Source of the DNA: a virus
Reading direction: 5' to 3' (one strand)
DNA: 64,000 bases
IMG/VR virus record: IMGVR_UViG_3300033145_002224
Location: 37,438 to 101,437 of that record
The position numbers were made by a program, and so were the translations under genes. Shown one piece after another: positions 11,769-33,202 of this stretch. The notes under the pieces were generated by a model. The model had not been told where the DNA came from. It did not search any database and was given only the letters and a program-made list of their open reading frames with translations. The stretch's first letter is position 1. Every line of letters begins with the position of its first letter.

Positions 11769-14272
11769 TTATCTTTCTCCAAGAACGTCTAAAACGTTAA
11801 TATTACCCATAATATTAAAATTATAGTACTCCATTAAAAGAGTTGAGGTACTTGAACTTGTAGAACTAGAGGTACTAGATGTTGTGCTGGAGCTAGTACT
11901 TGAGCTAGTAGAACTAGACGTAGAACTAGAAGTAGAGCTAGAGGTACTGGATGTTGTGCTGGAGCTAGTGCTTGAACTTGTGCTGGATGTTGTGCTAGAA
12001 CTTGTGCTGGATGTTGTGCTAGAACTGGTTGAACTAGACGTAGAACTAGAAGTAGAGCTAGAGGTGCTAGATGTTGTGCTGGAGCTAGTGCTTGAACTTG
12101 TACTGGATGTTGTGCTAGAACTTGTGCTAGAACTTGTGCTGGAACTTGTACTAGATGTTGTACTAGAACTTGTGCTGGATGTTGTACTAGAACTTGTGCT
12201 GGAACTGGTTGAACTAATAGAACTAGAAGTAGAGCTAGAAGTAGAGCTAGAAGTAGAGCTAGAAGTACTAGAAATTGAACTAGAGGTAGAGCTAGAGGTA
12301 CTAGAACTTGTTGAGCTTGTGGTGGAGCTAGAAGTACTAGAACTTGTAGAGCTAGAAGTAGAACTAGATGTAGAGCTAGAAGTACTAGAACTTGTAAAAC
12401 TAATAGAACTAGATGTAGAGCTAGAAGTACTAGAACTTGTAGAGCTAGAGGTAGAGCTAGAGGTAGAGCTAGAGGTAGAGCTCAATGAGCTAGAGGTAGA
12501 GGAACTAGTACTAGAACTTGTAGAGCTAGAGGTAGAGCTAGAGGTAGAGCTAGAGGTAGAGCTAGAGGTAGAGCTAGAGGTAGAGCTAGAGGTAGAGCTA
12601 GAGGTAGAGCTAGAGGTAGAGCTAGAGGTAGAGTAGAGGTAGAGCTAGAGGTAGAGCTAGAGGTAGAGCTAGAGGTAGAGCTCAATGAGCTAGAGGTAGA
12701 GGAACTAGTACTAGAACTTGTAGAGCTAGAGGTAGAGCTAGAGGTAGAGGAACTAGTACTAGAACTTGTAGAACTAGAGGTAGAGCTAGAGGTAGAGCTA
12801 GAGGTAGAGCTAGAGGTAGAGCTAGAGGTGCTTGAGCTTGTTGAACTCGTTGTAGAGCTAGAGGTGCTTGAACTTGTAGAGCTAGAGGTAGAGGATATTG
12901 AACTTGATGTCGATGAACTTGTTGAGCTAGACGTACTAGAAGAAGTCGTTGTCGTGCCGCCCTCCGAATAAGTTACTTCAAGCTTAGGTCTTCTAATTGG
13001 ATCTTCAGAAGTATCATCTGAAAAATAACAACCATTTTTATAACTAGTACTTGTGCCCGGTGCAGTATTACCAGCATCATAGGTTTGTTCCAGAACTCCA
13101 AACCAAGAGTTAGCATCTGGATTAATATTATCAAAAGAATCAAAATTAATTACATTATATTGACCAGTTGACCAAGAAGCAATATCTCCTAGATTGGTAC
13201 CACCTGGAATAGCTTGAGAATCAAAATCAGTAGTGTCTAAGGATTCTATGAGCGAACCAGCTTTTTGAATTTCAACACCCGCGCCACTATTTGTAACACC
13301 ATACAAATTAAGAGACGCTGAAATAATATTAACATCTGTTGCTAAATCGGTTGTATCAAAAGTAAAAAATGAACGCCAAATACTATACCGACCCTTACTG
13401 TCGGTTTCTGCACCTATTGCTTCCGCTTCACTAATATCATTACCATCAAAATAATCTGCATCACTATCATCTCTACAATTACTCCAACCAGTAGTATCAA
13501 GATTATAAACTACACCATCAGTTGTTTCTGAATAATAAGTATTTGTATCAATCAAAATTGGATATTGAGCTAAAATTAAATCATCCCTACCCTCTTTTGT
13601 CGGAATCTTGGTATAAAATAAATTTCCATCAATTTCTTCTAATGTATGTTCTATCGTTTTACATTTTTTATTATTACTATCTTTAAAATATGGATTATTA
13701 ATCCAAAATTTTATTTCTTCTTTTTCGTCAACAAATACAAATCGACCTCTTTCATTTGGAATATACTTATTTCCTTCTTTTTCATTTGAACAATGTAATC
13801 CTTTTAGGTATATTTGTTCTACTATTTTAAAATTTTCAATTAAATTAGTTACTTTAACAAAGTTTGTTAAACTAACAGCACTTACCCTGCTAATAAGTTC
13901 AATACCAGAATCTAATTGGTGCTTAATTTCTGTTTTTGATTCTTTTTGTAGAAAACTGACCTCATCATTTGTAATATATTCTACACTATCTAATTTTATT
14001 TCCTTAATTGACCCCTCAAATTGATGTTCATAATCATATCGTAAACCAAAATATTTTTCTAACTTTAAGTCTCGTCTAAATCCAGCACTAACTTTATTTT
14101 TATCAGAAATCCAATTACCATTACCATCATCTAAAAATTCTAAATCTATATTTTCCCATTTACCATCTTTATCATAATGTACGGGTGCACAACCACAAAC
14201 AAGTTTACTCACACCATTACCGAGGTCAAAGGTTTTGTTTCGTTCACTTCTGCTTGATATTATCTCAATCAT
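11769..14272 (-). CDS. Mucin-like virion protein (WapA/RHS-type N-domain + DNRLRE-like domain + ~370-aa Ser/Thr tract), split by a 1-nt frameshift near 12633
   Basis: ORFs 12482..14272 and 11769..12485 fuse into 834 aa if one C is restored in the repeat unit GAGTAGAGG; RSFFTFD...SASLNLY...RPKLEVTY is DNRLRE-like. Confidence 0.7.
11850..12955. repeat. Degenerate 12-bp tandem repeat encoding (TSSS)n, including perfect (GAGGTAGAGCTA)n
   Basis: Directly visible; perfect run at about 12520-12632. Confidence 0.95.
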
Positions 14273-14276
14273 TCGT

Positions 14277-14948
14277 TTATATAATGTTACTGTTAATTAT
14301 GTTCCAATCAAATCTTTTACTAATATTTTCAATGAATAAATCTATAAATGTTTCTCTACTAGTGATGCCAACTTCATCTAATCCAATAATAACATCAGAA
14401 ATATCTTTAATATCACCTTTTTTAAGCATCTTTTCAGTATCTAATCTATAAACATCTCTTGCTAAATTATAATCAATTTTAAATGACACTGGTAAAGCAT
14501 AGTAATCCCAACCATTTAACTCACAATGAAAAAACCCACAAAATTTTTTTAATTTATTATCGATCTTAATAAGTAAATCATTGTTTTTATAAATAATATT
14601 ATATTTTTGTAATTTTAATGTTCTAATAACATTAGCTATAAGGGCTTTTTCAACTATTTTTACTGGTAACACCCCCCTTGGAATATGCAAATCAATCTTT
14701 GCGGTATCTTTAAAGTAGCAAATTACTCCCGCCTCGGTGTGTTCGGGCACGGGAACCCTTATTACTTTAACGTTAGATGGTATCTTATCTATATATAAAT
14801 ACTTCTCTGGTTTATAATTACCAGTTAACATCAAGAACGTTGATTCTGGAAATCCACAAACAAATGTTGGTAAATTAAATTTAATATTATGGTCATCTGC
14901 GAATGACTTCGGTTCTATTTTATTATTTTTTATATATTGAATTTCCAT
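14277..14948 (-). CDS. Lipoate-protein ligase/biotin-ligase (BPL/LPL) fold protein
   Basis: AGVICY (cf. GGxVY) and NDLLI...KKFCG (cf. NDL...KKIxG) motifs. Confidence 0.6.
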   Translation of the reverse strand: MEIQYIKNNKIEPKSFADDHNIKFNLPTFVCGFPESTFLMLTGNYKPEKYLYIDKIPSNVKVIRVPVPEHTEAGVICYFKDTAKIDLHIPRGVLPVKIVEKALIANVIRTLKLQKYNIIYKNNDLLIKIDNKLKKFCGFFHCELNGWDYYALPVSFKIDYNLARDVYRLDTEKMLKKGDIKDISDVIIGLDEVGITSRETFIDLFIENISKRFDWNIINSNII

Positions 14949-15822
14949 CTTTTTTAAAAATTAAATAACTACTAAATAAAATTAATCCCATTCCAATCCC
15001 CTGAGTTAAATTAATAACTTGATTTAATATAAGAAATGATAATATCACGCCTAGAATAGGTTTTATATATGCTATAATTCCCACAGTAGATGGTATAAGT
15101 TTTTTCACACCATTATAAAACAACATAAATGCTATAAAAGTACAAACAATCCCCATATAAATAAGATTAGGGAGTGTGGTGGCATTAATTTGACTTAATG
15201 TTGTAGCGGGATTCTGTAAAAGCATTGTGCCAAAAAGTACAAATAAAAAAGTATAAAATAAAATTGTAAAAGGATTATATTTCTTAAATAAACTTTTTCC
15301 TATCATTGTATAAATAGCCCAACACATTGCTGCTATAAACATCAGGCCAACTCCCATAAAATTTATTCCCGCCAAGGCTAATTGAGGCAAAAAACCTATA
15401 ATAAACAATGAACCAGTTAACCCAAGAATTAAACTTAAAATCTTTCTTTTGCTAAATGATTCTTTCCAAAAAATTGCTGAAAATACTACTATCCAAACAG
15501 GGAAAGTAAAATAAACGCTAATTGCTGTCGGTATATGATTTAACGTTTTTATTCCTTGCCAAAATGCCAAAAGATGAATTAATAAAACAAATCCTAATAA
15601 TAATAAAATACCTATATCTTGTTTCTGAACCTTTAACCAACTCTTTTTAAATATTATTATAGTCAAAAACATCAAAACACTAGCAATTAAATATCTAACA
15701 CTTAAAAGTGTTATTGGACTTGCCCCTCCACGATATACAAATGTTCCGGCTATTTCTATTGTAGCCCAACATATTTGAGAACCAATAACACTTAAGGCAC
15801 CTATTAAAAATTTATTTTTCAT
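14923..15822 (-). CDS. EamA/DMT family transporter
   Basis: About 10 hydrophobic segments in two repeats; FPVWIVVFSAIFWKE and KPILGVILSFLILNQ EamA signatures. Confidence 0.9.
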   Translation of the reverse strand: MKNKFLIGALSVIGSQICWATIEIAGTFVYRGGASPITLLSVRYLIASVLMFLTIIIFKKSWLKVQKQDIGILLLLGFVLLIHLLAFWQGIKTLNHIPTAISVYFTFPVWIVVFSAIFWKESFSKRKILSLILGLTGSLFIIGFLPQLALAGINFMGVGLMFIAAMCWAIYTMIGKSLFKKYNPFTILFYTFLFVLFGTMLLQNPATTLSQINATTLPNLIYMGIVCTFIAFMLFYNGVKKLIPSTVGIIAYIKPILGVILSFLILNQVINLTQGIGMGLILFSSYLIFKKDGNSIYKK

Positions 15823-15850
15823 AATTTTAGTTATTAACTAATTATTTTTA

Positions 15851-16513
15851 TTATAATTCATCATTAATAGAACCCCAACCATCAATATCTAAAGAATCAC
15901 CAAGAACATCAAAATCTTCATATATATGTGAAATTGTTGATGTAGAACTAGAGGTACTAGAACTTGTACTAGAAGTTGTTGAACTTGATGTACTAGAACT
16001 TGTAGAGCTAGAGGTAGAACTAGAAGTAGAACTAGAGGTACTAGAACTTGTACTGGAACTGGTAGAACTAGTAGTCGAACTAGAGGTCGAGCTAGAAGTA
16101 CTAGAACTTGTACTTGAACTTGTTGAACTTGATGTACTAGAACTTGTAGAGCTAGAGGTAGAACTAGAAGTAGAACTAGAGGTACTAGAACTTGTAGAAC
16201 TAGTGGTCGAACTAGAAGTAGAGCTAGAAGTACTAGATGTTGTACTGGAACTAGTAGAGCTAGTAGTTGAACTAGAGGTGCTAGAACTAGTAGAACTAGT
16301 AGTTGAACTAGAGGTACTGGAACTAGTAGAGCTAGTAGTTGAACTACTAGTACTTGAACTTGTTGAACTAGTTGTAGAAGAACTAGTACTAGAGCTAGTT
16401 GTTGTTTCAAACGAAACACCCCAAAGATCTGTTTCCAAAATCAAACCATCTCCGTCATATCCTACACCGGAATCATCATATAATATTCTATTATCATCGT
16501 ATTGAAGCGCCAT
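15851..16513 (-). CDS. Small mucin-like Ser/Thr-rich structural protein
   Basis: N-terminal YDD..YDD..YDGDG motif, ~155-aa TSSS tract, short acidic C-terminus. Confidence 0.75.
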   Translation of the reverse strand: MALQYDDNRILYDDSGVGYDGDGLILETDLWGVSFETTTSSSTSSSTTSSTSSSTSSSTTSSTSSSTSSSTTSSTSSSTSSSTTSSTSSSTTSSTSSSTSSSTTSSTSSSTSSSTSSSTSSSTSSSTSSSTSSSTSSSTSSSTSSSTTSSTSSSTSSSTSSSTSSSTSSSTSSSTSSSTTSSTSSSTSSSTSTISHIYEDFDVLGDSLDIDGWGSINDEL

Positions 16514-16517
16514 TTAA

Positions 16518-17309: not shown

Positions 17310-17339
17310 ATGTTTATTATTAATTTATTAACTTATTTA

Positions 17340-20300
17340 TTATGTATCTTCTTGATAAACTCTACCTGCCACCCAATTACTACCATCATAATAATCAGAC
17401 ACATTTAATGTCTTTGTACCGGTTAGTGTAAATTCAGTATCTGCGGCAGTTGTACTATCATTATCTAACGCTTCCCACGTTGTAGAATCAAAATTATATA
17501 TTTGTAGATATACTGTTGATGCGCTTGGTGCTGTTGTGGATTTTCCCTTCCATATTAGTGTTGGTGCTTCTGTATTACTATCATGTTGATCTTTAAATAA
17601 AAATATTGCATTCTCACTTATAGCCGCCTGGGCTACATATACATCATTATCTGTTCTAACATTTATATAATCAGCACCACCGAATAAATTTTCTAGATCT
17701 GTTTCATCAGCTGGTAACGCAGCATAATTCCCCCTACTGTAATCTTCATCTGTTGGTAATGACGTAGATGAACTAGTAGAACTAGACGTAGAGGAACTAG
17801 TAGAACTAAGTGTATACGTAGTTGAACTAGAAGTAGAAGAACTTGTTGAACTAAATGTATGTGTAGTCGAGCTAGAAGTACTAGATGTAGTAGAACTAGA
17901 AGTAGAAGATGTTGTACTGGAGCTAGTAGAACTTGATGTACTGGAGCTAGTAGAACTTGATGTACTGGAGCTAGTAGAACTTGATGTACTAGAACTGGTA
18001 GAACTAGTTGTAGAGCTAGAGGTGCTAGATGTGGTAGAACTAGAGGTAGAGGATGTTGTACTAGAGCTAGTAGAACTTGAAGTAGAGCTAGAAGTAGAAC
18101 TAGAGGTAGAGCTAGAGGTAGAGCTAGAAGTAGAACTAGAGGTAGAGCTAGAGGTAGAACTAGAAGTGCTAGAACTTGTAGAGCTAGAGGTAGAACTAGA
18201 AGTAGAACTAGAGGTGCTTGAACTTGTTGAACTCGTTGTAGAGCTACTAGTACTAGAGGTTGTAGAACTAGAGGTAGAGCTAGAGGTGCTTGAACTTGTT
18301 GAACTCGTTGTAGAGCTACTAGTACTAGAGGTTGTAGAACTAGAGGTAGAGCTAGAGGTGGAAGATGTAGTACTAGATGTTGTGCTTGAACTTGTAGAGC
18401 TAGAGGTAGAGGATGTTGTAGAGCTAGAGGTAGAGCTGGAGGTACTAGACGATGTTGTTGTAGGTGCTGCGTTATGATGAATTCTAACCTCTGCTATACT
18501 GGCATTACAATTTGTTCCAGACACTTTATCAAAATAAAATTTAACTTCTAGAGCTTGAATTTTAGCCCATGTCCATCCGCCAGATGGGACATTAAGTGTT
18601 CGCCAGGTACTATAAGACCATCCTAGACTTGTATGATTAATTGTACAAAGTAAATCTATTAATCCATCTGTATAAAATTTTGCTATTAATGAATCATCAT
18701 TATTGCTAATAGCACCAGCAACTCTAACTTCAACATAACCTATATTAGACGCATCATCTATGGCGCTTGTTCCGCCACCTAATAAATAATTACTTGTATC
18801 ATTTCCACCAGTTGTGGTGGTTGCAGCATCTACTGTATCACTATTAAAAGCAAGGGCATCATCAGACCAGGCGCCGCCTGTGTCTGTTGGCCCATTATCT
18901 GAGGCATCAAAATAGTAATCTACGTATTCTAATGTAGTAATAGATGAAGTAGAACTAGAGGTAGAGCTAGAGGTGCTTGAGCTTGTTGAACTCGTTGTAG
19001 AGCTAGAGGTGCTCGAACTTGTACTTGAGCTTGTGCTTGAAGAAGTAGAACTAGAAGTAGTTGTAGTCGTACCACCAACAGCGTGAGTTATTTTTATATA
19101 TGGCTCATTACCATCCCAAATATCTACTCTCAATACATTCGCTCCGGTCGGAGTCACACCACTTATGTCTCCACTTAACCTAAAACCGACGATAGTATTT
19201 CCTGTCTTATTAATACAATCAAAATCAGTCAAGGAAAGTCCGACATCTATATCTGCTCCAGCAGTGGTAAAGTCTGTCAAATCACGACTACCAATAGATG
19301 TGCTTTCATAATCATTAAAATCCTCATCTACCATTGGGCTTTCAATATTGATATTATCTGTATGATTTAAAGCAACTAAATCATAACCATTAGTATTACC
19401 ACCTGTCGCATAAAGTCTAAACCAACAAACCGCAGCAGAAACAATGTCCCCGTCTGGAATAACGGCGGTATTATAATAAATTTCTCCACGTCTTACGTAA
19501 TAAGTCGCATACTTAGAATAATGTAGAGCATTACCCGAAAACCCAGCTCCCCTTGTGGCCGTTGTTGCATCTCTCGCTAGGGCTAAGGTCGCTTTATTGT
19601 CTGATTGATGACAAGAACTATTAGTACTATCATAATCAAAATCAGTAATAGTATCTGCTTTTACTGGATATTCTGCGTCTAACAAAAATTGTTTAGGTAA
19701 TATTTTTACTTGCCATAAATTACTATTATATTTTTTCCAAAATATTTTTATTTTTTGTATACTGAGTTCGTCTTTATCATGAATATAAGCTGAGCGTATC
19801 CAAGATTTTTTATCACTTGCTTCTTCTATTTTAAATCCATTCTCACTTTCAAAATATTCATTTTTATTCCACTCTGTCAACGACACCTTATTTTTAATAT
19901 TTAATTCTTTATCAGTATCAAATTTAAAAAGAACTGCTAACTGATGTTTCTCTGTTGGAGATTTACCTATTTTATCATAATTATCAATTATGATTTCTTT
20001 TTTAAACCCCTTACTTGAAAGTGTAATTTCAAAATGTATTCCATCACCAAAAGCATTTTCATATCTTATTGCATTACCAATTAACTTGCCTTTAACCGCA
20101 AATTGATTACGAAATACTTGCATATCAGAAAAGTCTTCTTTATTCACCCAAGCCAACATTTTTGGCTCATAATAAATTTTATGGTTAGAACCTCGGTAAA
20201 CATTATCAAATCTTATCAATTGTTTAGCATTGAAATCTTTTTGAATAAAAAGTTTATAAGAAGCTTTGGTCATTTGCCAATAGCTTCCCATATCTTCCAA

Positions 20301-20438
20301 TATTAAATTTACATCATTCCAACTATTATCAGTTCCTTTATAATGTAAATGTCCAGTACTAATTTTTGTATCACAAGTACCATCACCATTATCAAAAGTC
20401 TTACTATGATATTGTCTTTTGTTTAGTATTTCAATCAT
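17340..20438 (-). CDS. Large mucin-like virion protein (WapA/RHS-type N-domain, DNRLRE-like domain, two TSSS tracts)
   Basis: N-terminus paralogous to the 14272 gene (MIEI..R...KTFD.G.G...HY...W); Ser/Thr tracts at about 17760-18460 and 18935-19070. Confidence 0.75.
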   Translation of the reverse strand: MIEILNKRQYHSKTFDNGDGTCDTKISTGHLHYKGTDNSWNDVNLILEDMGSYWQMTKASYKLFIQKDFNAKQLIRFDNVYRGSNHKIYYEPKMLAWVNKEDFSDMQVFRNQFAVKGKLIGNAIRYENAFGDGIHFEITLSSKGFKKEIIIDNYDKIGKSPTEKHQLAVLFKFDTDKELNIKNKVSLTEWNKNEYFESENGFKIEEASDKKSWIRSAYIHDKDELSIQKIKIFWKKYNSNLWQVKILPKQFLLDAEYPVKADTITDFDYDSTNSSCHQSDNKATLALARDATTATRGAGFSGNALHYSKYATYYVRRGEIYYNTAVIPDGDIVSAAVCWFRLYATGGNTNGYDLVALNHTDNINIESPMVDEDFNDYESTSIGSRDLTDFTTAGADIDVGLSLTDFDCINKTGNTIVGFRLSGDISGVTPTGANVLRVDIWDGNEPYIKITHAVGGTTTTTSSSTSSSTSSSTSSSTSSSTTSSTSSSTSSSTSSSTSSITTLEYVDYYFDASDNGPTDTGGAWSDDALAFNSDTVDAATTTTGGNDTSNYLLGGGTSAIDDASNIGYVEVRVAGAISNNDDSLIAKFYTDGLIDLLCTINHTSLGWSYSTWRTLNVPSGGWTWAKIQALEVKFYFDKVSGTNCNASIAEVRIHHNAAPTTTSSSTSSSTSSSTTSSTSSSTSSSTTSSTTSSTSSSTSSSTTSSTSSSTTSSTSSSTSSSTSSSTTSSTSSSTTSSTSSSTSSSTSSSTSSSTSSSTSSSTSSSTSSSTSSSTSSSTSSSTSSSTSSSTSSSTTSSTSSSTTSSTSSSTTSSTSSSTSSSTSSSTSSSTSSSTSSSTSSSTTSSTSSSTTSSTSSSTTHTFSSTSSSTSSSTTYTLSSTSSSTSSSTSSSTSLPTDEDYSRGNYAALPADETDLENLFGGADYINVRTDNDVYVAQAAISENAIFLFKDQHDSNTEAPTLIWKGKSTTAPSASTVYLQIYNFDSTTWEALDNDSTTAADTEFTLTGTKTLNVSDYYDGSNWVAGRVYQEDT

Positions 20439-23643: not shown

Positions 23644-24485
23644 AGTTTTAAATTATTTTCTTTTAAATATTGTTTAATTGTTAGGTCGTGTGGACTGGAA
23701 AATATTTCACCGTATTCCTCCGGTGTATATCTATTAGCCTCTTTTTCTAAGTGCCATAATTTAGTATTAAGATAATTGTCCCAGTTTTCTGCTATCTTCC
23801 ATTTCCAATGATCTAATCTCCATTGTCGTTTCTCCTGTGTTAGCATTGCAAGGTGAACATTAAGACGCATTACTCTTATCTTCTGTTTTTTTTCAATTGG
23901 ATATATGTGACATAATCCCTTATATGGTGTAAATGTTTGTTGTAAATCTGGCTTAAAAATACGTAGGTGGGTGTGCATGCATTCTTGACGAACAGTAAAC
24001 ATATCACCAAAAACATCAACTGGTTTCATGATTACAGCCTTTTTATCGTCCTGACCGGCTAATTGTTTTAATATAACTTCTACATGATCTGAGAACAGTT
24101 CATCAGAATCCGGGGCCATTACAATATCTATCTTCTCACCTCCTTTAATCAACCCAAGAATATGTTGTAACATAACCTCTCTAATTTCACCTTGTATAGT
24201 GTTGAAACGCTTAAAAAGCCCCCTTACTCGCGTTTCATGGGCATCTTTAGTCCATTTACCGCCTAAACTGTTTCGTACGTTAGAGTCAAATATTTCAACT
24301 CTTTTACTGTATTGTTTTTTATAGTTTTCAACTATCCTTCTTGTTTTTCTGTCCTCATTATCCAACATTATAATTATCCTATCTGTCCACTTTAATAATG
24401 CTGGAATTGTATGATGTAGAATATCACCACACCTCGAAACCATCATTGCTCCAACTATATTTTTTTTCTCTAAAAAGTTTCTCAT
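23640..24485 (-). CDS. GT-A fold glycosyltransferase-like protein
   Basis: DRIIIMLD and DSDE (DxD) motifs; cluster context. Confidence 0.65.
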   Translation of the reverse strand: MRNFLEKKNIVGAMMVSRCGDILHHTIPALLKWTDRIIIMLDNEDRKTRRIVENYKKQYSKRVEIFDSNVRNSLGGKWTKDAHETRVRGLFKRFNTIQGEIREVMLQHILGLIKGGEKIDIVMAPDSDELFSDHVEVILKQLAGQDDKKAVIMKPVDVFGDMFTVRQECMHTHLRIFKPDLQQTFTPYKGLCHIYPIEKKQKIRVMRLNVHLAMLTQEKRQWRLDHWKWKIAENWDNYLNTKLWHLEKEANRYTPEEYGEIFSSPHDLTIKQYLKENNLKL

Positions 24486-25594
24486 AAATTAAAAATCTTA
24501 GTCATTCTATCCTCATCACTTAGCCCCCTCTCATAAGGTAAAGATGGATTAGATAAAACTTTTTTTGGGTCTTCATTCGAAAATAGAACCCATCCAAAAT
24601 CAATTAGATATATTTTATTTGATAATTCCATTATATTAGCGTGTTTAATGTCTCTGTGTTCTATACCATTTTCTTCTAATTCTTTTAAAATTTCCCTTGC
24701 ATCATCCTTATATAGTGAGTGATCTATCCTTCTGTGTCTTCCAACATAATCCATTATTAAATAATTATCACCTACTTCTAATATATTTGGATAATGATCA
24801 TATTCTTTAAGCATTTTATATGCCCTTAATTCCCGGTCCTTAACCCAGTTATATTTAGGACGATATATTTTTTTAATATACTTTCTGTTTATTCTTTCTA
24901 CTATAGATGTTGTCGCTCGTTTAGTACCATCAATAATCAACCATGGACGAACACAAACAAAAACTCTTCTACCACCAAGCCAACCACTGTTAGAGCCATA
25001 ATCAGCTATGATATCAAAAATGGTGCATTCTTCTACCCAATGCTTAATATCTTCTTGTGTAGCTCCAACTATTCTGGCCATACCATCGTTAGCCGCACTT
25101 TCAAAAATCAACATATCACATTTTTTAGACACCTCAAAGAGTAAGTCTTTCGCGTATTTCATACCATGCTGTTTTACTATCCACATCCATTGGGATAACC
25201 ACACAATAACATCTACCTTCTCTAGGGATTTAACCCACTCTATGGTTATTTCTCCATTAATAAATTCTACATTATCTAATTTAAGGTGCTTGGCAGCCGC
25301 CCTGGCTACATCTATACTCTGATTATCATAATCGATACCAATAACCTTAGTAGCCTTACGCTGTGCTAATCCAAGAGAAATTCCACCAACACTACAACCT
25401 ATATCAAGGATCGTTTTATTTTTTGGCTTAATAATTCTTGCAATTTGTTTCATTCGTGCCAACGTATTACCTCTATGACGTTGATGGTGATCTAGGCCAG
25501 GAAACGGTAAATCATGATATAGTTTACCATCAGCAGTAGAGCTACCCGCAAAACTACGTCCTTTTATATTTTGTACTTCTTTTTCTAAACTCAT
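24482..25594 (-). CDS. Methyltransferase-kinase fusion (WbdD-like architecture)
   Basis: N-terminal ILDIGCSVG SAM motif; C-terminal HRDIKHAN and IDFG kinase motifs. Confidence 0.85.
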   Translation of the reverse strand: MSLEKEVQNIKGRSFAGSSTADGKLYHDLPFPGLDHHQRHRGNTLARMKQIARIIKPKNKTILDIGCSVGGISLGLAQRKATKVIGIDYDNQSIDVARAAAKHLKLDNVEFINGEITIEWVKSLEKVDVIVWLSQWMWIVKQHGMKYAKDLLFEVSKKCDMLIFESAANDGMARIVGATQEDIKHWVEECTIFDIIADYGSNSGWLGGRRVFVCVRPWLIIDGTKRATTSIVERINRKYIKKIYRPKYNWVKDRELRAYKMLKEYDHYPNILEVGDNYLIMDYVGRHRRIDHSLYKDDAREILKELEENGIEHRDIKHANIMELSNKIYLIDFGWVLFSNEDPKKVLSNPSLPYERGLSDEDRMTKIFNL

Positions 25595-26232
25595 TTATTT
25601 CTACTGTAAAATATCCACGTAGGGATATGTTTTATATATATTTTATCTTCGCCCTCACCTTTAGCTATTTTTTCTAAAAGTTCAATATCAAATTTATATC
25701 GCCGCTCCGGCCTGGCATTAAAATAACCATATTTATCAAAAAGTTCTTTTTTATATAAGAACCCTCCTAAATCACATTTTTGATGTTCTATCTTACATGT
25801 CTGAATTTTCTTATAATTTGGGTCTTTTGTACTCCTTATTTCAAAATCGGTTCCTAGTAAGGTGGCACTAGGAACTTTTTTATGCATGTCGACTAGTGTT
25901 TCTAAATGATTTGGATACCAAATATTATCTTCGTCATGCAAAATTATCCAATGCTCATCCCAATTTTGCCTTCTACTCTGATGATGATAAACGAAAGAAG
26001 CCATTATCCCTATATTCCTAGCATAACAACCCGACCAATATGTTCTAATACCTAGGTCTATCCAGTGGCGTTTTTTACCATCACAATACTTCTTAAATTC
26101 TTTTCTAACCCCTGGGTTATTATCATTTATTAATATATGTTCCCACTCTGTAAATGTTTGAGCATCAACAGATTTGATTAACTTCTTTAGATTTTTAACC
26201 TGCCAACAAGCAGATATTATTGTTATTTTCAT
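25591..26232 (-). CDS. GT2 glycosyltransferase
   Basis: IKSVDAQTFTEWEHILIND, ARNIG, DEDN. Confidence 0.85.
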   Translation of the reverse strand: MKITIISACWQVKNLKKLIKSVDAQTFTEWEHILINDNNPGVRKEFKKYCDGKKRHWIDLGIRTYWSGCYARNIGIMASFVYHHQSRRQNWDEHWIILHDEDNIWYPNHLETLVDMHKKVPSATLLGTDFEIRSTKDPNYKKIQTCKIEHQKCDLGGFLYKKELFDKYGYFNARPERRYKFDIELLEKIAKGEGEDKIYIKHIPTWIFYSRNK

Positions 26233-26738
26233 GTTTTTTTAACTAAGCCCATTCCGTCTCCCCAATCTAAGTTTACTTTGGGATAATTAATCTCAGTCCA
26301 AAATTGCCTTACACCTTCCCAGTGAACAGTATCATGCATAAATATATATCCACCAGTTTTAACAAATTTTTCATAGTTATAAAAATCAGCTTTAGCCATA
26401 TCATAACTATGATTGCCATCAACTATTAATATATCTATTTGTTTATTCCAGGTTTTATGAAAATCGATAGAATTAACACAATGAAAGACCCATCTATTCT
26501 TGTATTGCTCAGGCACCCTAGCACGATTACTACAATCTTTTATATCACAACTATGTAAAATACCTTTATTGTTTTGGTCTAAACCGGCCAAAAGTGTTCT
26601 TGTTGCAAACCCATTGCGCGTTCCAATTTCTAAAATTAATTCTGGTTTAGTATTTACTACAATTTCATACATTATAAGAGCCCATGGAGTTGTTTCTTTA
26701 TATATTTTTTTATTTTCTACTATTAGTGGATGGATCAT
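26229..26738 (-). CDS. Class I SAM methyltransferase (Methyltransf_24-like)
   Basis: ILEIGT..G, VDGNHSY, GGYIFMHD; paralogous to 23119..23643. Confidence 0.9.
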   Translation of the reverse strand: MIHPLIVENKKIYKETTPWALIMYEIVVNTKPELILEIGTRNGFATRTLLAGLDQNNKGILHSCDIKDCSNRARVPEQYKNRWVFHCVNSIDFHKTWNKQIDILIVDGNHSYDMAKADFYNYEKFVKTGGYIFMHDTVHWEGVRQFWTEINYPKVNLDWGDGMGLVKKT

Positions 26739-26749
26739 TTTATTATTAT

Positions 26750-27544
26750 TTATTTATAAACTTTTTCACCAGGTAATGGTATATTAGTTAATTTATGGAC
26801 CTTAGGGTATGGTTTTTTTTCTATAGCTTGATTCATTCGCGTTAGATGACCAAATCCCCATTTACGTGGAACAACTTTATAATTTCTATCTGGTGCATAA
26901 CCCATTTTATGACTACACCATAAATTTTTTGCCCAACTTCCATCCATTTTTAAATTTGTACGAACTTTATGTAAAAAACTCACATCATCCCATACTTTTT
27001 TAGGATTTAACATTCCCATCTTTTTAAAATCAGATGACAATTGTATTCTAAAATAAGCCGACAGGGCTTTTCTCGCTGGTGCTAAATCTTCATTACCAAG
27101 AGACCAGTTCATGTTTGGTATCCTCTCAATCCTTGTACCTATTCCAGCTTGTTCGGGATATTTTTCCATAAGATCTTGAAGCTGTATTATAACATCTGGA
27201 GTAATCTTTGGTATTCTTAAATCATCCTGAGCCATCACAAAATATTCGCTTGTAACATGTCTAAATCCAATATTATATGCAGCTGAAATAGTATTTTCTG
27301 TCCTATTAATAAGAACATCAACTTTTCCTTCTTTACACTTCCGCTCAAGCATTTCTATAGTACCATCAACACTTTCGTCATCAACAACAATTAGTCTTAT
27401 TTTATCTGGATATTCAACTCTATCATAAATATAATCTATTGTTTTTTCTGTATTATCCTTTCTATTCGCTGATAACATTATAATATCAATTTTTTTATGA
27501 GGATATCTATTTTTTGGATGAACTCTATATTTTTCTTCTATCAT
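26750..27544 (-). CDS. GT2 glycosyltransferase
   Basis: IVVDDESVDGT, AYNIG, QDD. Confidence 0.9.
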   Translation of the reverse strand: MIEEKYRVHPKNRYPHKKIDIIMLSANRKDNTEKTIDYIYDRVEYPDKIRLIVVDDESVDGTIEMLERKCKEGKVDVLINRTENTISAAYNIGFRHVTSEYFVMAQDDLRIPKITPDVIIQLQDLMEKYPEQAGIGTRIERIPNMNWSLGNEDLAPARKALSAYFRIQLSSDFKKMGMLNPKKVWDDVSFLHKVRTNLKMDGSWAKNLWCSHKMGYAPDRNYKVVPRKWGFGHLTRMNQAIEKKPYPKVHKLTNIPLPGEKVYK

Positions 27545-28866
27545 CGTTTTCTACTGACACAAATAATTGATGGTTTATTAACCCCAGGAACATTTTCCAA
27601 TCTTATTATTCTATGTCTTAGAATATCGTTAATAATTATCTCTAACATTTTTTTATTCAAGGATACTTTATGAGACCCATCTAATATTGTACGTGGATGT
27701 AATTCTCCATCTGGGACAATAAATGCCATAAGCCCTCCCGGCTTCAACACTCTAAACCATTCACCTAAAACGGCTTTAACATCAGAAAAATGTTCGAGGC
27801 AATGAGAGCTCACCAAGCCGTCTACCTCATCGTCATTATAAAACCATAAATCATCACCAATGTGAACAATATCAACATTATCATACGGCCTAATATCAAT
27901 ACCGATATTTTCTTCTTTTATTTTCCTCTTACCACAACCTATATCAAGAACAATGTCACCCTTACAATATTGTTTTAATTCTTCATGCTCCCTTTTTCTA
28001 ATTGAACCAAATGTTTTTCCGTTTGACTGTTCTTCATCTTTAGGAATAAAGCCACCCATCATTCCCCAATATTTAAGTCGTTTTTTATGTTCTGCTGTAT
28101 CAGCCGGATGGGTTAATTTAATTGGTGTATTTGTTTTTGGATCAATATCTGAATATGGTTTATGGTCTGCTTGATCAATCCTTTCTGGCGAATAAGTATA
28201 ATAATCTACAAAACCCTTGTCATAACCTTTATTATGTTGATAATAACCAACATGATCTGCGTAGAGATGTGTCGCCATCGCATATTTCTTTTTAAGTTGC
28301 CATAAATTTTGTACACAGGATCTGCTCTCCCAATGGTTCATACGACCAAATGGTCTGTCAAATTTATCAAGATCATCTTTCCTCATCATCCTGAACACTG
28401 ATGGCATACTTTTTAAGGTATCAACTAATTCACTATTTTCATCCCAATCAAGACGGCTTGTGCGTTGTATCCGCATACAGATTGCTCCATATTCTGGTTC
28501 ATACTTCTTGTAGAGGTGTAGTAGCCGCTCAAGCCAACATGGGGAAAGGTCTGGTGGGAATAAATCATCTTGTGTAGTAACAATATATTCACTTTTAGCG
28601 ATCTTAAAACCCTCGTTTAAGGCCTTGCATTGCCCCACATTCTTAGGAAGATAGATTACTTCATCTACATAACCGACTGTTTTAGCACGCTTTAATATGC
28701 CCCTTGTATTATCAGTAGAAGCATTATCAATTACTATCAACCTATGTGGATATCGCGTCCGTTCATAAATACTTTTAATAGTTTTTTCCAAGAAATTAGC
28801 GCGTTGATAAGTCACAAGAAGAATATCTATCTTCTCAAAACTATTTTTATGTAGTTTTTTTTCCAT
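27541..28866 (-). CDS. GT2 glycosyltransferase fused to SAM methyltransferase
   Basis: IDNASTDNT and QDD; C-terminal LDIGCG, HCLEH, RVLKPGG; likely start MEKK at 28866. Confidence 0.9.
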   Translation of the reverse strand: MEKKLHKNSFEKIDILLVTYQRANFLEKTIKSIYERTRYPHRLIVIDNASTDNTRGILKRAKTVGYVDEVIYLPKNVGQCKALNEGFKIAKSEYIVTTQDDLFPPDLSPCWLERLLHLYKKYEPEYGAICMRIQRTSRLDWDENSELVDTLKSMPSVFRMMRKDDLDKFDRPFGRMNHWESRSCVQNLWQLKKKYAMATHLYADHVGYYQHNKGYDKGFVDYYTYSPERIDQADHKPYSDIDPKTNTPIKLTHPADTAEHKKRLKYWGMMGGFIPKDEEQSNGKTFGSIRKREHEELKQYCKGDIVLDIGCGKRKIKEENIGIDIRPYDNVDIVHIGDDLWFYNDDEVDGLVSSHCLEHFSDVKAVLGEWFRVLKPGGLMAFIVPDGELHPRTILDGSHKVSLNKKMLEIIINDILRHRIIRLENVPGVNKPSIICVSRKR

Positions 28867-28867
28867 A

Positions 28868-29200
28868 TTATTTTTTAATATTAACGTCTTCGTCGTGGTC
28901 CTTATTAAGGTGAAAACCCATTTTAAGCCAAACAATATAACAATACGTAGCTATCTTAAGTAAATCTTTCTCACGTTTAAAGTTAATAAATCTTCCAATA
29001 TATTTAGCCATTGTTCCAAGCACCCAGTCAACCCCAGTCTCACCTGGCACAATCTCACATACCCAATCAGTCACCTCTTTATCCTCTTGATTCTTTAAAT
29101 GATATTTCGCTCCTCCGTGATTGAATTGGTTCTCTAGGAGTTTCGCAAACTTTTCCCAATTCTCTTGTTTCGTTTTTACATTTGTGTTGTAGATTTTCAT
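28868..29200 (-). CDS. Small all-helical phage protein (DUF3310-like)
   Basis: HGGAKY, KYIGR, DLLKIATY pattern. Confidence 0.5.
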   Translation of the reverse strand: MKIYNTNVKTKQENWEKFAKLLENQFNHGGAKYHLKNQEDKEVTDWVCEIVPGETGVDWVLGTMAKYIGRFINFKREKDLLKIATYCYIVWLKMGFHLNKDHDEDVNIKK

Positions 29201-30626
29201 ATAATATTGGTTCTAAAAAATTATAATATATTGAATAAGAATTATATTTTTTCCATACATGACGAAACTGCAAATCAGACTTATTACTCTTTAACTCACC
29301 AACTATTTTCTTTGCTAGACGATTTAATTCTTCATTATCTCGTCCGCTATAATGCAAACTTCTAGAAGATGTAAACGGATATGATAAAATAGCATCTTCA
29401 TTAACAGCGTCATATAAACATGGTAAATCAGAATTTAATACTAATAATTGTTTTGTTATACTAGCTTCAAGCAAAATATTAGAAGAAACTTCTGCCACAG
29501 TGGCTAATATCATTAAATTAGATATTTGCATTAATTCTGCACAGACCTGGTTGGGAACCTCTGACTCTATATGATATTCTTCATCAGCCAGTAAACTAGT
29601 AATAATAAATTCATTATTATTTAATCCCATCTTTTCTGCCATTTCTTGTTTTCTCTTTAAATCATCAACCCTTTTCCTTCCATTAGCATTTGCTATTATA
29701 AGAGCTACTTTATTACCAAGCCTCTTCAATTCTACAAATATTTTAATAACAGAATCTATTCCCTTCGCATCAAACCTAGTAGAGCAAATGGGATATGTTT
29801 GAATGATGTCACGATCCCAAAGATGAAATTTATTAACAATCATTTTTGTGACTGGATGCCAATCGAACATGAACGCAGGATCTTTTTCATTTTGGACAGT
29901 TCTAATCTGATCTGGTTCAACTTTAATTGCCTTACCAAATTTCCCAGCATCAGTATAGTTAAGATATACAAACCTAGCATTTGGCATTGAAAAGTCCATA
30001 TTATGTCCTACACCAGACCTGGCAAAATTTAGCCATGGGATATCTACTCCACACTCTCGAATTGCCTCTGAAAAAGTGACCGTATCTTGTAAAAAAAAGT
30101 CATGAGTGATTGCAATATCGTAATTACCAGTTAATTCTTCTCTAAACAAATTTATTAATTTTCTCTTAACCTCCTTATTAACTACCATTTTTTCTCTCTT
30201 AAATTTAGGTATAACTCTCTCTACGTTACAACCAAGATCTTCTTTTGTCAGTTTAGAATTTTCTTGTAAAAATACTGTCACATCATGACCATATTTTAAT
30301 AATATTTTAATTTGGTTTCTCACTGCCCTGGCTGGGCTATAACTCTGCGGCATTGAGTTGAAGTGACTTACAATAACTATTTTTAGCGGTTCTTTTTTAC
30401 CGATTATCTTTGGTGGCTTGATTATATCAACTGGCTTTTCGGCTTTAATTCCCATGCTTCTAACACAAGAATCGAGTGATGGAACGATATCGTCCTGGCC
30501 AAATTTTTGCCTAAAAACATAATGTTTTAAATTGTTTTCTTCCCTGGACTCATCTTTAGTTGTTAGTGTAATGAAATAAGAGTCTAGATCTTTAGCTTTT
30601 TTAATTGTCTCATCTAAGTTATTCAT
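29079..30626 (-). CDS. GT4 (GT-B) glycosyltransferase
   Basis: GHDVTV, R...KG, E.....LLEA motifs. Confidence 0.8.
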   Translation of the reverse strand: MNNLDETIKKAKDLDSYFITLTTKDESREENNLKHYVFRQKFGQDDIVPSLDSCVRSMGIKAEKPVDIIKPPKIIGKKEPLKIVIVSHFNSMPQSYSPARAVRNQIKILLKYGHDVTVFLQENSKLTKEDLGCNVERVIPKFKREKMVVNKEVKRKLINLFREELTGNYDIAITHDFFLQDTVTFSEAIRECGVDIPWLNFARSGVGHNMDFSMPNARFVYLNYTDAGKFGKAIKVEPDQIRTVQNEKDPAFMFDWHPVTKMIVNKFHLWDRDIIQTYPICSTRFDAKGIDSVIKIFVELKRLGNKVALIIANANGRKRVDDLKRKQEMAEKMGLNNNEFIITSLLADEEYHIESEVPNQVCAELMQISNLMILATVAEVSSNILLEASITKQLLVLNSDLPCLYDAVNEDAILSYPFTSSRSLHYSGRDNEELNRLAKKIVGELKSNKSDLQFRHVWKKYNSYSIYYNFLEPILYENLQHKCKNETRELGKVCETPREPIQSRRSEISFKESRG

Positions 30627-30747
30627 ATCATTGTTGTTACAAAATAAAACTTCTCAAAAAAACACGTAGGGTAATCGTGAAAAAACCTTTGTGCAATTAA
30701 GAGAAGTTTAATTTTATACACGATTAATTAAATAAATTTTCTATATT

Positions 30748-30939
30748 CTATTTATACTTTTTACCAGTCAAAACATAACCAGCTTTTTCTACTATTTGCT
30801 TTTTACCGATTAACCATCCAATAATAGATGTAACAACTGGCATTATAACTGTAATATTTTTGTCAAAACCAATGAGAACAAAAATACCAATTAAACCAAT
30901 AGCACCTAATAGCGCCATTAATAATTCGAATTTTGTCAT
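30748..30939 (-). CDS. Small 2-TM membrane protein (holin-like)
   Basis: Two hydrophobic segments and a basic C-terminus; next to a peptidase. Confidence 0.55.
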   Translation of the reverse strand: MTKFELLMALLGAIGLIGIFVLIGFDKNITVIMPVVTSIIGWLIGKKQIVEKAGYVLTGKKYK

Positions 30940-30943
30940 ACTG

Positions 30944-31969
30944 TTATTTAGTATTAATAATATTATAATTATCTAATAAATTCTCGTTTTTGTCAATCCT
31001 ACCAACCTTTATGGCCTCTGGTTTGGTCATCTCTAACCACAGAGAATTAACCTTCCCACAAAAAATCGAATCGAAGGACCAGAATCCATAGGCAAGACCC
31101 TTTATTTCTCTATTATTTGGTAGCCTACCGATTTTACCATATAACCAAACATTAAATGCAAAGGAACGCTCACGTAAGAAACTAGTCCATGTTCTCTTTT
31201 GTCCATAGTAATTATCTACTGCTAACTCTTTCTTTAAATCCAAACTGCACCAAAGGTCCCAGACAACCTTATTAAATATTTTATATGGAATTTTAAAATA
31301 TCCTTTATCACCCCAACCAATTCCCCAGCTATTTTTACACAATACATCTTCTTTAAAATCATCAAAACCTTTAATTTCTATAGCATGACCACCCGCACTA
31401 TTCCCCCAATCATCTAATGGCAACCTACCCTCAGCACCTGGCCGATTAAAGACGGAATACCAATTCATAGACATAACAATACTATTCTTATGTGTGGTTA
31501 GTGTTTGTCTAATATCATCAATCGTATTTTCTACTCTCCAATAACTATCTGATTTATGTTTCGCTGCATCACTATAAGCAATCTCTGGGATATATTTAAC
31601 ATCAATATATTCTTCCCAAGTCATTTCTGGGCCTGGTTCTGGCATAACTGTCTGATTACAGATTCCAACATTATTAACAATTTTAAAAGAATTTCTAGTA
31701 TAGCCACCATAACTCGTATTACCCTCAAGCTCCTTGGTTAGCGCCATAATAAACCTAGCTGAACCCTCACTATTTTCTTGTCGTTCTTTGTGGTGTGCCT
31801 GTGCCTGACTTGTACATGAGCCTCTAGAAAATTGATTATTTGGAGGGAATTGTTCCTCAATCTCAAAAACCTGTTTTTCTAAACTAACAGGTTGAGTAAT
31901 TCCGGCAATACGGAAATCGCGCCTATCTTTACGATCCCTTTTAGCGCCAAATGCAAAATTGTTATTCAT
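30944..31969 (-). CDS. Papain-like C1 cysteine peptidase (possible endolysin)
   Basis: NQ...GSCT, GGHAI, NSWG..WG..GY catalytic motifs. Confidence 0.9.
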   Translation of the reverse strand: MNNNFAFGAKRDRKDRRDFRIAGITQPVSLEKQVFEIEEQFPPNNQFSRGSCTSQAQAHHKERQENSEGSARFIMALTKELEGNTSYGGYTRNSFKIVNNVGICNQTVMPEPGPEMTWEEYIDVKYIPEIAYSDAAKHKSDSYWRVENTIDDIRQTLTTHKNSIVMSMNWYSVFNRPGAEGRLPLDDWGNSAGGHAIEIKGFDDFKEDVLCKNSWGIGWGDKGYFKIPYKIFNKVVWDLWCSLDLKKELAVDNYYGQKRTWTSFLRERSFAFNVWLYGKIGRLPNNREIKGLAYGFWSFDSIFCGKVNSLWLEMTKPEAIKVGRIDKNENLLDNYNIINTK

Positions 31970-31981
31970 ATATTTATTTAT

Positions 31982-32221
31982 TTACTTAAGTATCACCATC
32001 CCAACAACTCCCGACAAAAATGCTAATAATATAAATCCAACCATTCCGTAAACAATATTTTTTACCGGTCTAAATCTTTCGTTTGTAACAAATTTTTCGT
32101 CTGTACACTCAATAAAATCATCAAGCTTTTTCTCGATACGATTAACAGTAGCATCGGTAGATGAAAGTTTTGCTTCTAATTTTGCCATGTTTATTTTAAC
32201 ATTAGTTATATCTTCAGACAT
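31982..32221 (-). CDS. Coiled-coil + C-terminal TM protein (holin/XhlA-like)
   Basis: 79 aa; typical phage lysis-module architecture. Confidence 0.6.
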   Translation of the reverse strand: MSEDITNVKINMAKLEAKLSSTDATVNRIEKKLDDFIECTDEKFVTNERFRPVKNIVYGMVGFILLAFLSGVVGMVILK

Positions 32222-32293
32222 ATCTTTTATTATATATATGTGGCTTGTGCCGCCTAGGCAATAATATGCTCAGACGACACATTACCCGCTATA

Positions 32294-33202
32294 TTAACTC
32301 AGTAACGACGTTGAACTACTTGTACTAGATGAAGTTGAACTAGTTGTACTAGAACTTGTCGAACTACTCGTACTAGAGGTTGTTGAACTACTTGTACTGG
32401 AACTTGTTGAGCTAGACGTATATGTAGTCGAGCTAGAAGTACTAGAACTTGTTGAGCTAGACGTATATGTGGTCGAGCTAGAAGTAGAACTAGAAGTAGA
32501 AGAACTTGTACTGGAGCTTGTTGAGCTAGTAGTAGAGCTAGAGGTTGAGCTAGAAGTACTTGAAGTGGTTGAACTACTTGTACTAGAACTTGTAGAACTA
32601 GAGGTTGTAGTAAATTCTTCGTAGAAGTTAGCATTCCCCATTACAATTTTCCTTGCTTCACTAATCTCAAATAAATGCATTAACATCACATCACCCACAT
32701 CATTAGTACTAAGGTAAATAGGTAATAGTGTTTGTCTTGGAAAATGGCTATAATGAGTTGCCATTCTTCTACCATCGATCCAAAATTCAACTCTATCTAT
32801 CCGCCAACGAATTTCAAAATTAATCGCTCTATTTGTCCAGTCATCCTCCCATGTGATAGTTGTCTCTTCTTGTGCTGTAGCGGTAGCATCACCAGCTGAA
32901 CGTGCGGTAAGATGCCCACCATGTATCCTAAAATGGGCAAAATTACGAGTTGCGTGAGCCCTAGAATATAATCCAAAAATACGTTCATCAATTGCTGCTG
33001 GTGCATTTTCAAGTGTCATTTTAAGTGTCAGATTCCCAAACATCATAAAAAGACTAGTGGTTATAGCACCATCACGTAATCTAATTTTACCATCTATACA
33101 ACTTGGGTCACCAGTTATGATTTTTAACAAATCCTTATCAAAACCATAAATATATGGTTCATATGTAAAATGACCGAAGTCACTTACTGCTTTAGTATCC
33201 AT
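32294..33202 (-). CDS. Concanavalin/GH16-like beta-sandwich protein with C-terminal TSSS tract
   Basis: FEIRW..DRVEFWIDG motif; ~100-aa Ser/Thr tail at about 32300-32610. Confidence 0.7.
   Translation of the reverse strand: MDTKAVSDFGHFTYEPYIYGFDKDLLKIITGDPSCIDGKIRLRDGAITTSLFMMFGNLTLKMTLENAPAAIDERIFGLYSRAHATRNFAHFRIHGGHLTARSAGDATATAQEETTITWEDDWTNRAINFEIRWRIDRVEFWIDGRRMATHYSHFPRQTLLPIYLSTNDVGDVMLMHLFEISEARKIVMGNANFYEEFTTTSSSTSSSTSSSTTSSTSSSTSSSTTSSTSSSTSSSTSSSTSSSTTYTSSSTSSSTSSSTTYTSSSTSSSTSSSTTSSTSSSTSSSTTSSTSSSTSSSTSLLS

Follow-up and report, generated by a model that had tools for sequence, protein, structure and literature searches.

A putative module for glycosylating Ser/Thr-tract fibres between the capsid and adaptor genes of an uncultured phage

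Glycosylation of viral particles by enzymes that the virus itself encodes is established in giant viruses and in mycobacteriophages. In the former (Mimivirus, chloroviruses), a host-independent, virus-encoded multi-enzyme glycan machinery decorates the virus surface. In the latter, phage-encoded virion glycosylation was described for Che8, Corndog and Myrna (Freeman et al. 2023, as cited in PMC12619734 and PMC12363180). The present work concerns a block of genes at positions 11769-33202 of a 64,000-nucleotide stretch of DNA (the window), which corresponds to bases 37438-101437 of the IMG/VR phage record IMGVR_UViG_3300033145_002224 (101,437 bp, rated complete by CheckV). Four genes of this block carry long tracts of almost pure Ser/Thr around a cluster of glycosyltransferase (GT), methyltransferase and related genes. 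We propose that the block is a self-contained module that would glycosylate the phage's own virion fibres, a reading to which we assign a probability of about 0.6.

As summarised in the two articles cited above, the mycobacteriophage systems resemble this locus in that GT genes adjoin structural genes, glycans are found on the C-terminal parts of virion proteins and a surface shield has been proposed. In the same summaries the acceptors are the C-termini of capsid and tail-tube subunits, whereas here the capsid protein is tail-less and separate proteins carry tracts of 46-372 residues. The cluster is also much larger here, with about 12 enzymes and with methyl, phosphate and CDP-alcohol (cytidine diphosphate) chemistry, and its GT4-like enzyme, the only GT so searched, has no tblastn match among 50,697 INPHARED phage records (E 1e-5). 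Giant viruses differ in being viruses of eukaryotes, in having their own nucleotide-sugar pathways and in using folded acceptors rather than low-complexity tracts. The present locus stands apart by its dedicated mucin-like tracts on separate proteins and by a far larger cassette that seems to be exchangeable.

Another close parallel is found in the serine-rich repeat proteins (SRRPs) of streptococci, to which the original prediction, made from the same DNA, had compared the locus, and of staphylococci. In both cases hundreds of Ser-rich repeat residues are encoded beside a GT4-family GT-B enzyme and several GT-A genes, and glycosylation takes place in the cytoplasm before deployment, as we propose here. 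The weak PDB matches of the GT enzymes include GalT1 of the Fap1 pathway. However, a Pfam scan of the open reading frames (ORFs) of the block detected no GtfB partner, no accessory Sec genes and no LPxTG anchor, and the block holds no second GT-B gene. The repeat is TSSS instead of SxSx dipeptides and the context is a phage particle. The analogy thus holds for the way in which the system would work, not for membership of the SRRP family.

Tracts were defined as runs with at most two consecutive residues other than Ser or Thr. By this definition, (TSSS)n tracts of 105, 46 and 237, 162, and 372 residues, with 96-98% Ser/Thr, are present on four genes (five ORFs). Of the range of 100-370 residues claimed beforehand, the upper value matches the measured 372 when the longest tract is read across two ORFs; the shortest tract has 46. 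In the whole 101,437-bp genome, only 5 of 235 ORFs of at least 60 aa have 70% Ser/Thr or more in a 30-aa window, and all five reach 100%. Tract serines are encoded by both codon families (AGY, 262; TCN, 323). Since the DNA repeats are merely 65-85% alike while the peptide is 96-98% Ser/Thr, selection acts on the tract peptide and not on the DNA repeat; judged from these comparisons, the tracts are under peptide-level selection.

The tract of the 302-aa protein is C-terminal (residues 198-302, 105 aa, 96% Ser/Thr). The 1032-aa protein has two tracts (residues 457-502, 46 aa, and 660-896, 237 aa), and the 220-aa protein has one that covers most of its length (residues 34-195, 162 aa). In the 596-aa ORF of the long tract gene, residues 440-547 (108 aa) form a tract before the frame slips to LPLA repeats. 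The frame of the adjacent ORF carries on the TSSS reading for 264 residues, up to a short C-terminal peptide resembling that of the 220-aa protein. At about 12632-12643, within a perfect run of the 12-nt unit TCTACCTCTAGC, one copy is found without its G. This one-nucleotide deletion splits a continuous TSSS reading, and the two ORFs are therefore taken as one gene with a 372-residue tract; the deletion may reflect a misassembly or a recent mutation, or may act as a switch. No transmembrane or anchor segment was found in the tract proteins, and the capsid exon at 34669-35223 has no Ser/Thr tail at its end.

The relatives compared have portal proteins 58-71% identical over the best aligned segment, and about 60-63% for the phage group in which the two types below were distinguished. 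In all of them the gene of the 302-aa protein is the third after the major capsid gene, and in each relative covering the region this homologue ends in a Ser-rich tract. Two types could be distinguished. In type A, comprising seven phages (the window phage, G001, G005, L046, L050, L052 and L055), TSSS-type tails occur with homologues of a core made of the GT4-like enzyme, the GT2-methyltransferase fusion and a GT2. In type B (G002, G003 and L047), the tails are (SPSV/SPSI)n and the cluster, non-homologous to that of type A, contains three GT2 enzymes and several methyltransferases. Concordance between tract type and cassette type in this phage group is perfect, and the distal fibre genes obey the same rule (G001, L047). 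While the core is present in all type A cassettes, the kinase fusion described below is present in only 3 of them. Co-occurrence in related phages had been suggested as a check of the original prediction. In this phage group, tracts and a GT cluster occur together in about ten phages (7-8 of them with TSSS tracts and the GT4-like cassette), one relative (89 kb) lacks both and no phage has one alone.

Type B does not form a clade on trees of the jelly-roll domain of the 302-aa protein, of the capsid protein or of the 255-aa neighbour (approximately unbiased test, p 3e-6, 0.03 and 2e-5 respectively), and the distribution of the two types needs three changes. The sister phages L046 (type A) and L047 (type B) begin to diverge exactly at the junction between domain and tail. 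On either side of the cluster, recombination junctions coincide precisely with the boundaries of tracts.

The 89-kb phage (G008) has the same gene order as the window phage, with portal, capsid and nozzle proteins 63%, 80% and 49% identical. Its jelly-roll protein has a folded repeat C-terminal extension in place of the tract. No window above 60% Ser/Thr, no GT2 in the whole record and no match to any cassette enzyme were detected in G008. Only about 5 kb separate the jelly-roll gene from the adaptor gene in this phage, and about 18 kb of enzyme and tract-fibre genes are missing from the interval between lysis genes and adaptor. Seven control loci were also analysed, six with tail-less or folded-tail proteins and the G008 locus (L133). 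None of their ORFs of at least 60 aa matched a seed enzyme. Their 100 ORFs of at least 110 aa gave 33 Pfam families, and the 25 of these that were listed include no glycosyl- or methyltransferase family. Wherever the region is readable, the presence or absence of tracts thus agrees with that of GT clusters.

Starting from the enzyme gives a similar result. The GT4-like enzyme has at least 139 homologues with 47-77% identity, on contigs of up to 104 kb; only three lie on contigs of metagenome-assembled genomes, all of them small. Nineteen metagenome loci extend 3 kb or more upstream of the GT4-like gene, and 16 of these carry a TSSS ORF (15 upstream of the gene, one downstream); at least 11 short contigs begin within a TSSS tract. 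Some of these metagenome loci are the same contigs as in IMG/VR.

A second backbone was found in L126, a 41.5-kb phage that is unrelated and has a capsid of the HK97 type. The gene of this capsid is immediately followed by those of two proteins whose (SxSPSAS)n tracts measure about 200 and 500 residues. Next come GT-A enzymes, methyltransferases and a heptose-like nucleotide-sugar set made up of a SIS isomerase, a GHMP kinase and a nucleotidyltransferase; in L126:11773-19747 this set is accompanied by a UDP-sugar dehydrogenase-like gene and an oxidoreductase. These gene names were read by eye from the translations. The GT-A enzymes of L126 fall into the DxH family of the type B enzymes (E 1e-22 to 1e-38). 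Polypeptide GalNAc-transferases start mucin-type O-glycans, and the animal enzymes favour Ser/Thr near Pro. The best PDB matches of the 331-aa type B enzyme, the most fully tested member of the DxH family, are all polypeptide GalNAc-transferases (GALNT1, 2, 4, 7, 9, 10 and 12; best E 8e-7), and the alignment covers the Gal/GalNAc-T motif. A 274-aa member matches two such enzymes, more weakly. The DxH family is found only in types B and C, which have Pro-containing tracts, and is absent from the window phage, whose GT2 enzymes belong to another family. In those two types the resemblance to the animal enzymes (CAZy GT27) extends to the DxH motif, the Gal/GalNAc-T motif and Pro-containing Ser acceptors; unlike the animal enzymes, the phage proteins are short (270-330 aa) and without a ricin-type lectin domain. 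Pro-containing Ser tracts thus go with relatives of the mucin-initiating enzymes, and the Pro-free TSSS tracts pair with the GT4-like cassette.

In the window, the enzyme cluster (21441-30626) sits between SU10-type capsid and adaptor genes. Its GT enzymes are one GT4, three GT2 and a weak GT-A; besides these it has four methyltransferase domains, a kinase, a cytidylyltransferase and a weak sulfotransferase. The earlier count of enzymes in a 9-kb cluster flanked by the tracts is thus borne out by Pfam, with the reservation that the GT-A and sulfotransferase calls are weak. The GT4 call itself is weak by hidden Markov model (HMM; E 0.004), but homologues carry PF00534 and a confident model (pLDDT 84) has the GT-B/GT4 fold. 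Its top structural matches are BshA, MshA and a Rickettsia GT; TarM, which has a DUF1975-type insertion, is tied at Z 15.4 and WaaG is equal. The start of the GT2-methyltransferase gene probably lies near 28866, as indicated by its homologues. In the methyltransferase-kinase fusion, Methyltransf_31 covers residues 58-131 and Pkinase/RIO1 residues 235-341, the kinase scoring 0.3 bits under the Pfam cut-off. The best PDB match of this fusion is WbdD (4azs, 4uw0; E 1e-13), although phmmer aligns only the methyltransferase part. As in WbdD of E. coli O9a, an N-terminal methyltransferase that would use S-adenosylmethionine (SAM) is followed by a kinase domain. In contrast to WbdD (about 700 aa), the phage protein has 370 aa and ends right after the kinase, without the coiled-coil ruler and the membrane-binding end. 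For the cytidylyltransferase, TagD is the best solved relative, and there is also a match to ethanolamine-phosphate cytidylyltransferase (E 2e-14). LicD (PF04991) was not found in the genome. HPAT/GT95 (PF23452) was not detected in this genome or in four relatives, in a search whose control gave no match either. The sulfotransferase-like protein has no homologue in the relatives compared; being weak and unique to this phage, the call does not establish the sulfate caps foreseen by the original prediction.

Transmembrane segments were predicted in none of the cluster enzymes. In addition, the Pfam scan and the transmembrane prediction revealed no priming phosphoglycosyltransferase, flippase, ABC exporter or polymerase in the block. 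Soluble enzymes without lipid-carrier machinery fit the cytoplasmic modification of a soluble acceptor.

These data suggest the following mechanism. Four proteins with long disordered (TSSS)n tracts would be made late in infection and would serve as acceptors, their Ser/Thr hydroxyls being O-glycosylated in the cytoplasm, before assembly, by soluble phage enzymes. The first sugar would most likely be transferred by the GT4-family enzyme, which is conserved and of the retaining GT-B kind. The GT2 enzymes would then extend the chain, the CmcI-like and fused methyltransferases would O-methylate its sugars, the WbdD-like methyltransferase-kinase would phosphorylate and methylate its ends and the TagD-like enzyme would supply a CDP-activated alcohol phosphate. 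The product would be glycan-covered fibres on the head/neck region, anchored by a ConA-like jelly roll and by fibre-like N- and C-domains, with a hydrated glycan coat that may protect the disordered tracts and modulate adsorption. In this scheme we infer the attachment of sugars to the tracts, the initiating enzyme, the order of the steps, the glycan caps, the bottle-brush architecture named in the original prediction and the biological role, including a possible role as adhesin. The position of the tract genes between capsid and adaptor genes points to a virion location of their products. The view that the tracts are purpose-built acceptors has withstood the check proposed with it: tracts and GT clusters co-occur, are jointly absent in a close relative and switch type together. 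The attachment of sugar itself is a prediction from sequence.

Several observations weigh against a virion-glycosylating module. Only two or three independent contrasts between the types are available, so that a sign test cannot reach significance. Tail, lysis genes, cluster and fibre genes are contiguous, and one cassette exchange could move them without functional coupling. The GT2 enzymes of the window are generic, with chondroitin synthase, TarP and DPMS as best matches, and the fold of the GT4-like enzyme does not single out protein-modifying GT4 enzymes. The usual substrates of WbdD, TagD and TarP-like relatives are glycans linked to lipids or polymers rather than proteins. Four loci depart from the association: in L088 the GT4-like gene follows replication genes and is tract-free in 18 kb; L092 is rearranged, with 4 kb upstream, and L118 is distant (41% identity), neither having a tract in the available DNA; in L057, where the type A cassette is immediately preceded by a capsid gene of the HK97 type, the 10.7 kb of sequence are free of tracts. 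By tblastn of the GT4-like enzyme there is no cultured relative. Finally, the virion membership of the tract proteins is read from gene position.

Some of these points speak for a different explanation, in which the cluster remodels a glycan of the host envelope (lipopolysaccharide, capsule or a teichoic-acid-like polymer), for example for superinfection block or as a release aid, and the tracts are unmodified flexible spacers that co-travel in the same cassette. The substrates of the best solved relatives (WbdD, TagD, TarP, chondroitin synthase and DPMS), the contiguity of tail, cluster and fibre genes and the L088 locus would agree with it, as would an EamA-type membrane transporter within the block, although this transporter has no homologue in any relative. 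We nevertheless regard this explanation as unlikely. The cluster is embedded among the late structural genes and shares their strand, and its enzymes are all soluble and unaccompanied by the priming, flipping, export and polymerising functions listed above. Moreover, tract chemistry tracks enzyme family on two unrelated backbones, Pro-containing tracts going with DxH GT-A enzymes, and the recombination junctions coincide with tract boundaries on both sides of the cluster. The match of chemistry and enzyme across unrelated backbones, these junctions and the absence of lipid-carrier machinery favour function over mere linkage.

The tracts might also be modified mainly by other means, either by a general O-glycosylation system of the host or by phosphorylation by the phage kinase, opposed by the metallophosphoesterase. 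A Pkinase/RIO-like domain and a calcineurin-like phosphoesterase are indeed encoded in the block, and Ser/Thr tracts would be ideal kinase substrates. This is quite improbable in our opinion: only 3 type A cassettes have the kinase fusion, although the GT core is always present, the phosphoesterase is found in none of the relatives compared for cassette content, and WbdD, the best relative of the fusion, phosphorylates sugars, as established for E. coli O9a. The difference in GT cassettes between tract types would also be left unexplained. It would be equally unexplained, together with joint presence and absence, if the glycosyl- and methyltransferases hypermodified phage DNA, as in T-even phages and others whose bases are glycosylated, and had no relation to the tracts. 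Phage GTs often act on DNA, according to literature cited in PMC12619734, and another GT2 is present in this genome outside the window. However, the cluster lies between capsid and adaptor genes, its methyltransferases are CmcI/sugar-O-methyltransferase-like and WbdD-like, and no base-modifying enzyme was seen in the block, so that modification of DNA appears very remote.

Beyond the glycosylation of virion fibres itself, the comparison leads us to a more tentative suggestion, which we hold with less than even confidence. Tailed phages may carry exchangeable "glyco-serotype" cassettes in which the chemistry of the acceptor is matched to the initiating enzyme (TSSS with GT4; SPSx/SxSPSAS with GalNAc-transferase-related GT-A), so that a swap re-coats the whole particle. 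The mucin-like glycan would then change on the head fibre and on the distal fibres at once, in the manner of O-antigen loci swapped by bacteria. If so, no mucin-like glycoprotein coat would have been known before in tailed phages, and viruses of prokaryotes would have a counterpart of the enzymes by which mucin-type O-glycosylation is initiated in eukaryotes. If the fibres are indeed glycosylated, widespread uncultured phages of about 90-100 kb would devote around a fifth of their genome to glycan-covered fibres, and phage virion glycosylation would reach beyond a few actinobacteriophages to environmental phages. A long Ser-rich tract beside a matched GT cassette would become a search rule for glycosylated phage proteins, and the compact acceptor/enzyme pairs could be offered for glyco-engineering. 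In our view the main interest lies in these matched cassettes and in the GalNAc-transferase-like enzymes of the relatives.

The folded parts of the tract proteins were also compared. The N-domain of the 302-aa protein is a ConA-like/GH16-like jelly roll (model pLDDT 86; Foldseek match 3d6e, TM-score 0.73, E 1e-8). The catalytic GH16 motif ExDxxE is not found in it, the equivalent strand reading R-I-D-R-V-E; in relatives, R, K, S or W occupies the place of the nucleophile. With the GH16 nucleophile missing, the domain is expected to be a binding or anchoring module and not a hydrolase. A direct homologue search with residues 1-190 gave no match, but an HMM search of representatives did, retrieving 348. 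About half of these are tail-less (some because a contig end cuts them short), many have folded C-terminal extensions and a minority have Ser-rich tails (TSSS, T-rich, SPSx or SASPSASES). As tails differ or are absent among these 348 representatives, the jelly-roll domain looks like an anchor for the display of a variable C-terminal module.

The N-domains of the 596-aa and 1032-aa proteins are paralogous and divergent. The C-domain of the 1032-aa protein is 46% identical to the domain that follows the SPSI tract in a tract protein of the type B phage L047; this tract protein also has a Pfam Laminin_G_3 match. CBM96, an Atlas lead for the N-domain of the 1032-aa protein, was confirmed neither by Pfam at E 5 nor by a search of the genome with PF24517; for the C-domain the Atlas lead is AF_1625_C. 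Hence the lectin-like domains announced by the original prediction are recovered in the 302-aa protein, by its fold, and in the tract protein of the relative, but not in the 596-aa and 1032-aa proteins. The tract genes had also been called structural. Their position agrees with this, while no structural match was obtained in PHROG or Pfam for the tract proteins, and neither the jelly-roll protein nor its relatives fall into a PHROGs family.

Table 1. Positions of the features of the block and of its boundaries in the window
Feature	Position	Strand	Remarks
SU10-type major capsid gene, interrupted	34669-36655	-	upstream block boundary; Pfam, PHROGs
302-aa protein: jelly-roll N-domain (residues 1-190) and C-terminal (TSSS)n tail	32294-33202	-	tract nt 32297-32611
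Putative lysis cassette	30748-32221	-	outside the glycan system
79-aa protein, C-terminal transmembrane segment	31982-32221	-	putative lysis cassette
Papain-like C1 peptidase	30944-31969	-	putative lysis cassette
63-aa protein, two transmembrane segments	30748-30939	-	putative lysis cassette
GT4-family GT-B glycosyltransferase, extra N-terminal domain of ~80 aa	29079-30626	-	hallmark of type A cassette; candidate for initiating enzyme
DUF3310-like small ORF	28868-29200		between GT2-methyltransferase and GT4 genes
GT2 fused to class I SAM methyltransferase	27541-28935	-	
GT2	26750-27544	-	paralogue of GT2 domain in 27541-28935
Methyltransf_24 / CmcI-like O-methyltransferase	26229-26738	-	
GT2 glycosyltransferase	25591-26232	-	
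Methyltransferase and kinase fusion (WbdD-like)	24482-25594	-	
Weak GT-A-like protein (E 0.0018, below cut-off)	23640-24485	-	fused to further C-terminal domain in relatives
Methyltransf_24 / CmcI-like O-methyltransferase	23119-23643	-	
P-loop protein, weak Sulfotransfer_3 match	22490-23122	-	21.4 bits vs cut-off 27; residues 2-71
TagD-like cytidylyltransferase (glycerol-3-phosphate / ethanolamine-phosphate cytidylyltransferase family)	21441-21842	-	
Calcineurin-like metallophosphoesterase, 281 aa	20452-21297	-	weak match
1032-aa fibre-like protein, two (TSSS)n tracts	17340-20438	-	tract nt 18933-19070, 17751-18461
220-aa protein, nearly all (TSSS)n tract	15851-16513	-	tract nt 15929-16414
Long tract gene, read as ORFs 12482-14272 and 11769-12485; 430-aa N-domain	11769-14272	-	tract nt 11841-12955
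SU10-type head-tail adaptor	10618-11727	-	downstream block boundary; Pfam, PHROGs

Every gene of the block is on the minus strand (Table 1). In this direction the order is capsid, 255-aa, 187-aa and 302-aa tract gene, lysis cassette, enzyme cluster and metallophosphoesterase, followed by the 1032-aa tract gene, a 263-aa gene, the 220-aa tract gene, EamA, a 223-aa gene, the long tract gene and the adaptor. For the portal protein, relatives in cultured phages are only distant (27% identity).

Other features of the block and its relatives deserve mention. A LAGLIDADG-like ORF (35304-36089) separates the two coding parts of the major capsid gene. An EamA/DMT transporter with ten transmembrane segments (299 aa, E 4e-38) and the 223-aa gene, which likewise has no homologue in any relative compared, lie at 14277-15822, flanked by tract genes, where the GC content of the window is lowest (28%); a membrane transporter within a phage structural block is unusual. 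The enzyme cluster is interrupted by a 231-aa ORF with weak helix-turn-helix matches (21835-22530), whose homologues occupy unrelated positions in G001, G002 and G003, which fits a mobile endonuclease-like gene. In L092:170-1948 the homologue of the metallophosphoesterase has 592 aa and, judged by eye, contains an intein-like insertion with a homing-endonuclease-like middle. The GT2 outside the window is the fifth GT2 match of the genome (E 2e-16) and lies at genome positions 20104-20409, in the other arm and on the opposite (plus) strand. In G001, a 98.6-kb relative, a single ORF of 3664 aa (G001:41418-52412; L029) adjoins the adaptor gene and has eight Ser/Thr tracts between folded domains, like beads on a string. 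Finally, contigs that start or end in a Ser/Thr tract were seen in L071, L074, L078, L085, L087, L098, L109, L114, L116, L122, L062, L045 and L125; because the tracts break short-read assemblies, this phage group is fragmented in public metagenomes.

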